Shown: in pieces, positions 30,901-39,639 of the stretch | Layout of the letters: every line of letters begins with the position of its first letter | How positions within the stretch are numbered: the first letter of the stretch is position 1 | Assembly (NCBI GenBank): GCA_903880015.1 | Contig: CAIRNS010000022.1 | Coordinates: 5,544-69,543 of the forward strand | Direction of reading: 5' to 3' | From: an uncultured Elusimicrobia bacterium | Lineage (GTDB): Bacteria; Elusimicrobiota; Endomicrobiia; Endomicrobiales; CAIRNS01 | Length of the DNA stretch: 64,000 nucleotides | Made by a program: the position numbers and the translations under genes | Notes under the pieces: generated by a model | What the model was told of the DNA's origin: nothing | The model's input: only the letters and a program-made list of their open reading frames with translations | Database searches by the model: none

Positions 30901-31465
30901 CAATAACATTCTTTCGGGCATTGTCAAATATATTCGCGCTCACCAGAACAACGGGTATATCTGCGCGCAAAACAAGAGCAAGCGCTGCAAGATTTTTTTG
31001 ACTCATCCGTCCATTTTTAATCAATAAGGTCCCATCAATATCAGTTGCCACCAGTTTCGGCGTCAACTCTCCTCGTTCAATAAATGCCAGCGCCTCCTGC
31101 ACGGTTAATGGACGGTCGCGAGGCAGAATGCGGGGGTCTTTGACAATCTTTGCGAGTTGCAGAATAGTGAGCGGATCGGGCTGACGACGGCGCAAAGCGG
31201 CGTAACGGTGCGAGGACAAGAACAGGGAAATTTTCATCGCTCCATCCGAGGTGGTTGGATTATTTATCATGAACGCAGCTGCAGTTTTATCGAGTGAATC
31301 AACGACAGAAATATCAGCATTATTCAACAGTTCTTCCAAATATTTTACCTTGTCTACGCCAAGAGCAGGGTCGCTACGCACGATGGTTAAGAGCATACTG
31401 CGCGTGGTATTATTTATATCGCCGGTGTATGAATGTGCACTGTGATTGCGATACACGCGTTGCAA
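27923..31465 (-). CDS. Large (about 1160-1180 aa) protein with an N-terminal split HAD-IIB (Cof-like) phosphatase module; remainder unassigned
   Basis: HAD motifs in order: VATDIDGTLL (nt ~31029-31043), VVLVSAN, FDKSYAI, LYLGDRMAQGQDDAAVL (nt ~30000-30060), with a cap insertion of about 330 aa. The track start is a TTG overlapping the giant gene by 52 nt. The first ATG is at 31396, 17 nt after the giant gene's TAA. Confidence 0.6.
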   Translation of the reverse strand: MQRVYRNHSAHSYTGDINNTTRSMLLTIVRSDPALGVDKVKYLEELLNNADISVVDSLDKTAAAFMINNPTTSDGAMKISLFLSSHRYAALRRRQPDPLTILQLAKIVKDPRILPRDRPLTVQEALAFIERGELTPKLVATDIDGTLLIKNGRMSQKNLAALALVLRADIPVVLVSANIFDNARKNVIDPLMLYEMRQRVRALTKADMAKLKRSSIRDLSVPAESTNDAVARLKAIVMNEDFSIYNIKDPLLRTMIADIRIKLCPLLHAFCSNGAQRWSYSIGTQKGNENHSYVLDKDDFNGAMKTQVKKIARTVWAEVIAEQEQWRASGIGGEEFHQGSPSDYPFDYTVLSTAMSSEKTGILHDPLRLEFEPGKIRMYVHKELSPLIPAYYARLNEALAAEGIAYIFNFDPSHPNSPWSSMSKDQQDRVLQENRAYFQNCDNLIYCAPFDKSYAISLAADLFAAAPSEILYLGDRMAQGQDDAAVLVTGVNAVEITDPEQSGKIMLAIAKRHAEGVDANNTAILFSEGYKYVKSFLHAGALALRLVRFARKDRSYIGEKHPALSGAWSVRSANGSLSSVVKEAIFERARLGQQTLLLQKLSDRPEGKKNLVWVGTVEIPVPDPDGGKPVPLMVKVFGEQVVVGTTNPVRVPVMYLEISHYQPLADHEFAPDRKRIVALLNHPLRDQLILDNAGRILVKELNGCILDPSYNNGIAAMGLGSFKPVFLEEQGKMYWIKVAADDVFALEFQLLNILPEKSSRWDLLKVYFDALAAEIAQLSPSLQHTRTARREETGKEDATCVVETDISALGNGRVGSMGDLVKSTDESPVRLSLSVRGTLPWQLPGESPSLIDPVYIDWESACRDANIDGTAVVFREQFSRLRQLAVRENGSFSRETIERLRIDELRLARELYQSMSGPRKRLIKLYENEDIVFNRRVKRRLAELETIFPGEKIGPAFSRFIEMTIAQQARVAAASGDRALWLNIPYVPVSEKFTLEKEKEYFEDINWWSGIFRGLIIDARVIGDGDADSLRRFCAGVQLDAGISARTAVRVALDSSRWTDHARVAAALAPLNMTVIWSISQDESMIGTLTGQIISVDARNLPGRDTVTVQDAVQRLMAGGARQVHVVVCAETNAKIWGGNEDLNIQQLAAALSPAAIQSTVVKSIDSALQENIALFLSAA

Positions 31466-39639: not shown

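Follow-up and report, generated by a model that had tools for sequence, protein, structure and literature searches.

The question raised by the stretch of DNA analyzed here is what a very large gene in its middle encodes, and where the product may act. The stretch, hereafter the window, spans 64,000 nucleotides (positions 5,544 to 69,543 of contig CAIRNS010000022.1, assembly GCA_903880015.1) and comes from an uncultured Elusimicrobia bacterium. A first-pass annotation, made from the letters alone, singled out an open reading frame (ORF) of 2741 codons (31414..39639, minus strand) as the complete gene for an apparently one-off, membrane-anchored mosaic protein. The frame and its ATG start are there as described. 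Yet it covers only the first 70% of a gene: window positions 27923-39639 (minus strand) are one gene for a protein of 3904 amino acids (aa), interrupted here by a 2-nt expansion of a C run. The protein is not a one-off either. Its N-terminal anchor, and the conserved domain which follows, called here the head, define a multi-copy family of giant proteins, concentrated in Endomicrobiales/Elusimicrobiota and with distant members elsewhere. The enzyme cassettes downstream of the head differ between paralogs, and are shuffled. Public records label the protein hypothetical.

That the gene is split in the window is indicated by three lines of evidence. Intact versions are known: within the 90%-identity protein cluster, three members measure 3904 aa and one 3928 aa, and a fifth, 2632 aa long, likewise spans the junction. 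P0001 (3904 aa), the top match in the database, is 100% identical across the query, and beyond ...LTLSVEP it continues with the protein encoded by the adjoining ORF (27923..31465, minus strand). In addition, a 14-kb alignment between the window and an independent assembly of the locus (L001, from Logan SRR20698644) shows 99.9% identity and one gap only. This gap falls at 31513..31518 (minus strand), where the window reads GAACCCCCCTCC and L001 GAACCCCTCC, six C residues standing against four in the intact allele. Finally, once the two additional bases are removed, only two residues, both ahead of the shift, distinguish the window protein from P0001, and the downstream 1195 residues are identical. 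The frame 31414..39639 thus corresponds to residues 1-2708 of the intact protein followed by ~33 out-of-frame codons, and the hydrophobic tail of the 2741-aa product (PSCNG...HTPAI) is out-of-frame sequence. Residues ~2709-3904 lie in another frame (27923..31512, minus strand), and the 52-nt overlap between the two frames (31414..31465) is itself produced by the frameshift.

Since the downstream residues are identical to those of P0001, the interruption is either very recent or an assembly error. In the former case the C4-to-C6 change would be a real mutation, and the allele a recent pseudogene, making only the 2741-aa product and deprived of the C-terminal parts, a HAD-IIB-type phosphatase domain among them. 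We regard this as quite possible, though short of an even chance. The public records for the contig of the window do carry split calls, of 2741 aa (P0018) and 1157 aa (P0022) on one 73.6-kb contig, and a 2-nt homopolymer change is plausibly not the commonest type of short-read error. However, the downstream frame shows zero decay relative to P0001, the junction is in frame in five other assemblies, and ahead of 31393, where the downstream frame has its first ATG, no Shine-Dalgarno-like sequence or other start signal is evident. Metagenomes scanned for the junction, allowing for 0-3 additional bases, had no matching contig, hence gave no count of the C6 allele. The pseudogene reading concerns the state of the gene, and is compatible with any view of its function. 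For annotation, the two ORFs of the window should be joined into one, or else marked as a frameshifted gene.

Doubts had also been raised by the first-pass annotation itself as to whether so long a frame could be an assembly chimera. However, several samples (NCBI metagenome-assembled genomes, or MAGs; ENA; JGI; Logan SRR20698644) have independently yielded this 11.7-kb gene, flanked each time by the same neighbours. A chance open frame is at odds with the homologs that several modules have elsewhere, and the probability that the frame is either chimera or chance is practically negligible. The gene is real and native to the genome, as had been proposed. Its GC content, 0.46-0.49 across the gene, resembles that of most of the window, and gene order is kept in other assemblies wherever neighbours are readable. 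The members of the protein cluster, all from MAGs, are named Elusimicrobia or Elusimicrobiota bacterium. A putative sigma-70-type promoter, proposed earlier from a perfect TTGACA-18-TATAAT consensus match, is present ~38 nt upstream of the ATG (39677..39706, minus strand), and is the sole 12/12 match in the 13.5 kb between positions 27000 and 40500.

What defines the family lies at the N-terminus. The hydrophobic anchor reported there corresponds to a segment at aa 17-40 (39520..39591, minus strand; aa 22-40 by hydropathy), preceded by R10 and K16 and followed by acidic residues, which may act as a signal peptide or a signal anchor. The head follows at aa ~60-520 (38080..39462, minus strand). 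It combines an alpha/beta core with the catalytic pattern D85-x-H87, E115, R433 and G479-G480-x-H482. In an alignment of 17 head sequences (A1) the residues D85, H87, Q93, E115, G151, R433, G479, G480, H482, P501 and Y513 are invariant. An AlphaFold2 (AF2) model of the head built from this alignment (pLDDT 79.5, pTM 0.76) has five strands, and places conserved residues at, or just past, the strand ends. A helical insertion of ~275 aa (aa 170-445) splits the core.

The pattern recalls the TIKI superfamily, whose enzymes are defined by a parallel beta-sheet core, a 2His/2Glu catalytic set and a conserved basic residue (PMC6254334). The set is made in RRSP by E3900, H3902, E3930 and H4030 with R4001 as basic residue, and includes H85 and E113 in Bcr135 (PMC6254334). 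D85-x-H87, E115, R433 and H482 of the head map one to one onto it. The His-to-Glu spacing is 28 residues in the head as in Bcr135 (H85/E113) and RRSP (H3902/E3930). The resemblance extends to a grouping that takes in TIKI, TraB-PrgY, erythromycin esterase and ChaN proteins, with RRSP, PMT C1-C2, HopBA1 and Bcr135 among its members: an alpha/beta core with the catalytic residues at strand ends, (E/D)-x-H, a Glu 28 residues on, a conserved Arg and a second His in G-x-x-H. The head differs in having Asp as first acidic residue, where the TIKI set has Glu, in the large helical insertion, and in the lack of significant profile or fold matches. Of the ChaN/TIKI/TraB-like relationship suggested by the first-pass annotation, the catalytic pattern stands, and no significant profile or fold match accompanies it. 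The head may be called, weakly, TIKI/Ere-like by its catalytic pattern, short of a demonstrated superfamily member.

The spread of the head was assessed by scanning one genome per species for [CNY]IQDLHC[NH], on the basis of a six-sequence alignment; the pattern is strict, and favours close, i.e. Elusimicrobiota, relatives. The anchor-plus-head combination has been confirmed at 254 places in species-representative genomes, and all but one of the best 80 of these are Endomicrobiales, Endomicrobia or Elusimicrobiota records. Several copies are present in many genomes, with at least 15 in a peat MAG and at least 8 in another MAG; the window itself contains one head. When complete, the ORFs which carry the head are mostly 1500-3300 aa long, and more than 20 exceed 3500 aa (some >3700 aa), running to the end of the fetched DNA. 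The head motif is found at a median of 74 residues from the ORF start, and in 77 of 81 head-bearing ORFs the first 60 residues include a strongly hydrophobic stretch. The N-termini of the family combine a positively charged n-region with a hydrophobic core, and often finish in an A-x-A-like end. Beyond the close relatives, sixteen distant homologs of 1826-4732 aa have only aa ~15-530 in common with the protein, and one distant head homolog is named Omnitrophota. Some paralogs are found in tandem, ~11-13 kb apart on the same contig, as L009 and L032 (JBELAT010000023.1) and L017 and L056 (JAFGIL010000053.1). One head match with 40% identity (L003, JBBSVZ010000187.1, 2487 nt) sits on a contig binned as 'Nanoarchaeota archaeon', which has probably been mis-binned, since every other top match is from Elusimicrobiota.

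Downstream of the head the proteins diverge. Three paralogs from one MAG carry different payloads: the first Pkinase, cytidylate kinase, PP2C and a second kinase-like module, the second DUF218, the third a metallophosphoesterase, a cytidylate kinase and a mannosylglycerate-hydrolase-like glycosidase. The distant homologs add 4-alpha-glucanotransferase with GDE_C, PP2C, glycogen synthase with transaldolase and CsrA, cNMP-binding, methyltransferase and receiver domains, and APH with histidine phosphatase. In the window protein the order is signal peptide or anchor, head, ~390 aa without assignment, kinase-like module, CPBP module, a central module of ~1050 aa, deaminase, HAD-IIB, and ~700 aa without assignment. 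All the motifs from which these modules had been proposed are present in the translation (VVCIQDLHCNP, IMVEGA, VVTGGFHSS, GAGGNG...ALKV, EELAF/FSASH/AHMVFD, MGGGADV, HGGDAV, HGE...PCNHC). Pfam and NCBIfam scans of whole proteins and of 13 overlapping 450-aa tiles (E <= 10) returned only the deaminase, a weak Rce1-like match and a HAD N-terminal motif. No internal repeats were found.

The kinase-like core proposed at first pass is a short module at aa ~931-1130 (36250..36849, minus strand), with a G-loop (GAGGNG), a beta3 Lys (ALK), a conserved Glu, a hinge (ILMELVSG) and a DFG-equivalent Asp (YDL). A three-sequence profile (A4) matches >1000 protein kinases in PDB from the N-lobe to DFG, the best being PAK6 (7e-9). 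A paralog, L079, carries two homologous copies of the module in one ORF, and the homologous module there exceeds the Pfam Pkinase threshold (39.9 bits, cut-off 31.7); for the window copy Pfam gives no match. The window copy lacks the C-lobe, only ~40 aa extending beyond the DFG-equivalent Asp, and could be an atypical kinase or a pseudokinase, judging from its motifs. The module that follows at aa ~1160-1310 (35710..36162, minus strand) forms 4-5 hydrophobic helices, and the CPBP assignment made earlier is upheld. As in other CPBP (CAAX protease and bacteriocin processing; Abi/Rce1-like) intramembrane metalloproteases, where EExxxR, FxxxH and HxxxN/D lie in successive hydrophobic helices, the window copy has EELAFN, FSASH and AHMVFD. 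E-E-x-x-F, F-x-x-x-H and the further H are invariant in 13 copies from nine paralog ORFs, with up to two copies per protein. Ten of the 13 match Pfam PF02517 (Rce1-like; best E = 6.8e-5); the window copy scores 15.1 bits, below the cut-off of 22.4, and the CPBP profile matched nothing significant among PDB sequences. What sets the module apart from known CPBP proteins is its embedding in a giant protein, sometimes in duplicate, along with the EELAFN variant and the sub-threshold score of the window copy.

The central module (aa ~1321-2373; 32521..35679, minus strand) has no PDB or Pfam match, not even as a profile. An exhaustive HMMER search of 1.84 billion representative proteins returned four relatives only (P0024-P0027). 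The glycine motifs MGGGADV and HGGDAV, noted early on within a large unassigned stretch, fall within the most conserved motifs shared with these few relatives, which are VWAMGGGAD, ELYEHGGDAVA.MHAG, VSP.NEKF, F.LSGLGNDFES and SYANKRGL. The AF2 model obtained from the five-sequence alignment is poor (pLDDT 54.5), and its Foldseek matches are meaningless. In P0025, a 5099-aa Endomicrobiales protein with the same head, a canonical cytidylate kinase comes after the central module, and next in line is a deaminase of the same type as that found here. Cytidylate kinase modules recur in the giant paralogs L079, L046 and P0025, and it is in P0025 that one directly precedes the deaminase.

In the window protein a zinc domain of the cytidine/dCMP-deaminase family (HGE + PCNHC) follows the central module at aa ~2527-2690 (31570..32061, minus strand). 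It matches Pfam PF00383 at 30.1 and 36.9 bits (cut-off 25), is homologous to the deaminase of P0025 (E = 2e-5), and shares with it an unusually long insertion between HGE and PCNHC. Matches to TadA and CDADC1 in PDB are weak. The first-pass annotation was correct as to the type of domain and not as to its position, described as C-terminal: with the frame restored, the domain proves internal, spanning aa 2527-2690 in a protein of 3904. Beyond it lies a HAD-IIB-type phosphatase domain with a large cap (30020..31051, minus strand), with DIDGTL as motif I and GD...DD as motif IV, the latter assigned by eye. Pfam Hydrolase_3 is matched at 22.5 and 24.2 bits (cut-off 20.9) over the N-terminal 46 profile positions only, and NCBIfam Cof/HAD-IIB matches are all below cut-offs. 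Within or just after this region the 3928-aa cluster member (P0020, MEI8217427.1) has a tandem duplication of ~20 aa (FDPSHPNSPWSSMSKEQQDR / FDSSHLNSLWSSMSKDQQDR); it has a 4-aa insertion after the CPBP module as well. Two regions are without assignment. Residues 541-930 (36850..38019, minus strand) have no Pfam, PDB or paralog match, and look HAD-like by eye only (ISIDMT...INTTG...HIDDE). The C-terminal 1157 aa and aa 541-930 found nothing significant among PDB sequences, and the last ~700 aa have no match.

How a protein so assembled may work is best approached from its two ends of evidence, the signal-like N-terminus and the enzymatic payload. We give an even chance to the view that it is a Sec-targeted enzyme carrier, held in the membrane or exported, with a TIKI/Ere-type head, variable cassettes and, possibly, the ability to process itself. 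According to this model the N-terminus would make the protein a Sec substrate, and the head would face outward from the cytoplasmic membrane and act there as a hydrolase, either protease or esterase. The CPBP helices would hold the chain in the membrane, and the enzyme cassettes would represent a variable payload. The hydropathy profile shows no hydrophobic segment between head and kinase-like module, so both should lie on the same side of the membrane. TIKI-superfamily domains, such as those of Tiki, TraB/PrgY and ChaN, are typically extracytoplasmic. This, the signal-like N-termini of the family and the lack of an intervening hydrophobic segment together suggest that the head, and what follows up to the CPBP helices, is exported. 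As the protein has two protease-type modules of its own, head and CPBP, self-processing is conceivable, in a manner analogous to autoprocessing multi-effector toxins.

Several observations weigh against this carrier model. Foldseek searches of PDB with the head model gave nothing below E = 0.3, although, in favour of the TIKI-like reading, the sole alpha/beta folds near the top of the weak list, otherwise made of helical bundles, are EreC, Bcr135 and HopBA1, all three listed as TIKI superfamily members (PMC6254334). ChaN PF04187 is matched weakly by three of the 17 head members (best E = 0.061), and the window head has no Pfam match. An hhalign comparison with the E. coli TraB-family protein YbaP gave a probability of 0.3, aligning only the expected R...GxxH motif, and the head profile found nothing significant among PDB sequences. 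The window kinase copy has a degenerate catalytic loop (IDDLQVMI) missing the Asn of HRD...N, and in the first CPBP motif Asn replaces Arg. The topology is predicted from hydropathy and charge only, and self-processing is conceivable by analogy only. The genes adjacent to the giant gene include no secretion, immunity, processing or mobile-element genes. Moreover, kinases, cytidylate kinase, HAD, PP2C, receiver, cNMP-binding and CsrA domains normally need cytoplasmic cofactors, which argues against an exported payload.

The last point is central to a different scenario, in which the protein faces the cytoplasm as a membrane-tethered multi-enzyme or regulatory scaffold. The N-terminal and CPBP helices would serve as anchors only, and the enzyme modules, all located in the cytoplasm, would be fused housekeeping or regulatory enzymes with nucleotides and sugar phosphates as their substrates. 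The kinase-like, deaminase and HAD-IIB payloads need ATP, nucleotides or phospho-sugars. The cytidylate kinase, PP2C, metallophosphoesterase and mannosylglycerate hydrolase of paralogs, and the glycogen synthase, transaldolase, CsrA, receiver, cNMP-binding and methyltransferase domains of distant homologs, are of similar character. The gene is located amid core metabolic genes in conserved order, and long Omnitrophota proteins with transmembrane (TM) helices only are read likewise in a 2026 preprint (10.64898/2026.06.07.730766). The scaffold is nonetheless at variance with family N-termini that resemble classical Sec signal peptides, with the usual extracytoplasmic location of TIKI-type domains, and with the absence of a hydrophobic segment which could place head and kinase module on opposite sides of the membrane. 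We hold it as tentative, and rather unlikely.

A third scenario had been put forward in the first-pass annotation, that of a polymorphic-toxin-like or host/prey-directed secreted effector, whose kinase, deaminase and phosphatase would act inside another cell. The signal-peptide-like N-terminus and the multi-copy family with shuffled cassettes are in line with it, as are weak matches of the deaminase to a toxin deaminase (MafB19-deam, E = 0.006-0.06). TIKI-superfamily domains are often extracytoplasmic or part of giant toxins, MARTX and PMT among them (PMC6254334), and the family has distant members in Omnitrophota, a phylum known to include predators or episymbionts. MARTX toxins also combine, as the protein described here does, unrelated enzyme modules and a built-in protease in one giant chain, and their effector RRSP has the TIKI fold. 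Unlike MARTX, however, the giant protein is devoid of RTX repeats, cysteine protease domain and type I secretion genes, its payloads look metabolic and not cytotoxic, and its processing is proposed by analogy. The deaminase is internal, and in P0025 a canonical cytidylate kinase stands directly before a deaminase of the same type, which suggests a free nucleotide as substrate. No Pfam/NCBIfam-type matches to RHS, PAAR, LXG or TPS elements were found at the locus, no immunity gene or secretion system is nearby, PADLOC gives weak kinase-type matches only, and many payloads are anabolic or housekeeping. A classical polymorphic toxin can be rejected, given the internal deaminase, the metabolic neighbours and the lack of an adjacent immunity gene and of RHS/PAAR/LXG/TPS elements; the broader effector hypothesis is improbable.

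The protein may be compared with the very long 'multi-enzyme cluster' proteins described in Omnitrophota (Nielsen & Lui 2026 preprint, 10.64898/2026.06.07.730766; West-Roberts et al. 2023 preprint, 10.1101/2023.11.21.568195), catalogued there from a length of 10,000 aa upward. In these too one polypeptide is tiled with unrelated enzyme domains (HAD, HD, methyltransferase, starch synthase/GT1, receiver, kinases), most proteins have a signal peptide and/or TM helices, and large parts are without annotation. The paradox of cytoplasm-type enzymes behind a signal peptide is the same, and the distant head homologs have the same Pfam families. At the level of the family described here, a multi-enzyme architecture on a polypeptide bearing a signal peptide or TM helices is likewise present. 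The two groups differ in size and phylum, at least 10,000 aa in Omnitrophota against 3904 aa in Elusimicrobiota, and in that the Omnitrophota loci are often flanked by secretion or pilus genes, which the giant gene is not. Membership of the SecA-helicase or dockerin-type giants reported by West-Roberts et al. was considered and rejected, none of those domains having been found here.

Giant membrane-associated multi-enzyme mosaics (at least 10 kaa, Omnitrophota) are thus already described. The head-defined Elusimicrobiota family is, within the texts covered, undescribed: term searches of the two preprints found neither a common N-terminal head nor a TIKI-like domain nor a family from Elusimicrobiota, and literature searches, with term searches within papers, retrieved no description of the head or the family, and none of a giant of this kind with a TIKI-like domain. 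The phenomenon of giant multi-enzyme proteins extends therefore beyond Omnitrophota. For questions about the location, processing and role of such proteins in uncultured small-celled bacteria the locus offers a tractable entry point, in view of a comparatively short protein (3.9 kaa), one invariant head with a clear catalytic set, and many comparable paralogs per genome.

The carrier model can be pushed further. The anchor-plus-head might mark a superfamily of Sec-targeted giant 'polyenzymes' reaching from Elusimicrobiota into Omnitrophota and other uncultured lineages. The TIKI-type head and the CPBP module would cut the precursor and release or display the cassettes, and the central module would be a new enzyme fold for cytosine-nucleotide chemistry, as hinted by the deaminase adjoining it here, and by the cytidylate kinase and deaminase in P0025. 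This extension is speculative, and unlikely as a whole. If true, it would reveal in bacteria a polyprotein, or effector-delivery, strategy comparable to that of MARTX toxins, and built from different parts.

The genes around the giant gene are of a metabolic kind on the upstream side, where the products are a short pyruvate kinase and both subunits, alpha and beta, of a 2-oxoacid:ferredoxin oxidoreductase. Downstream lie a flavodoxin-like gene, a gene of unknown type and a GT2 glycosyltransferase. The pyruvate kinase (39869..40900, minus strand; 343 aa) matches positions 2-340 of models of ~476 positions, and has the barrel domain without the usual C-terminal domain. The second-largest ORF of the window (49444..54033, minus strand; 1529 aa) encodes an almost pure tetratricopeptide repeat (TPR) protein, unrelated to the giant gene. 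At positions 16000-20000 the GC content falls to 0.38-0.39, against ~0.49 elsewhere. Two minus-strand ORFs reside there (16300..18675 and 18864..20660), whose counterparts in a syntenic contig are TPR and radical SAM/SPASM proteins, and the pair may represent a horizontally acquired peptide-modification pair.

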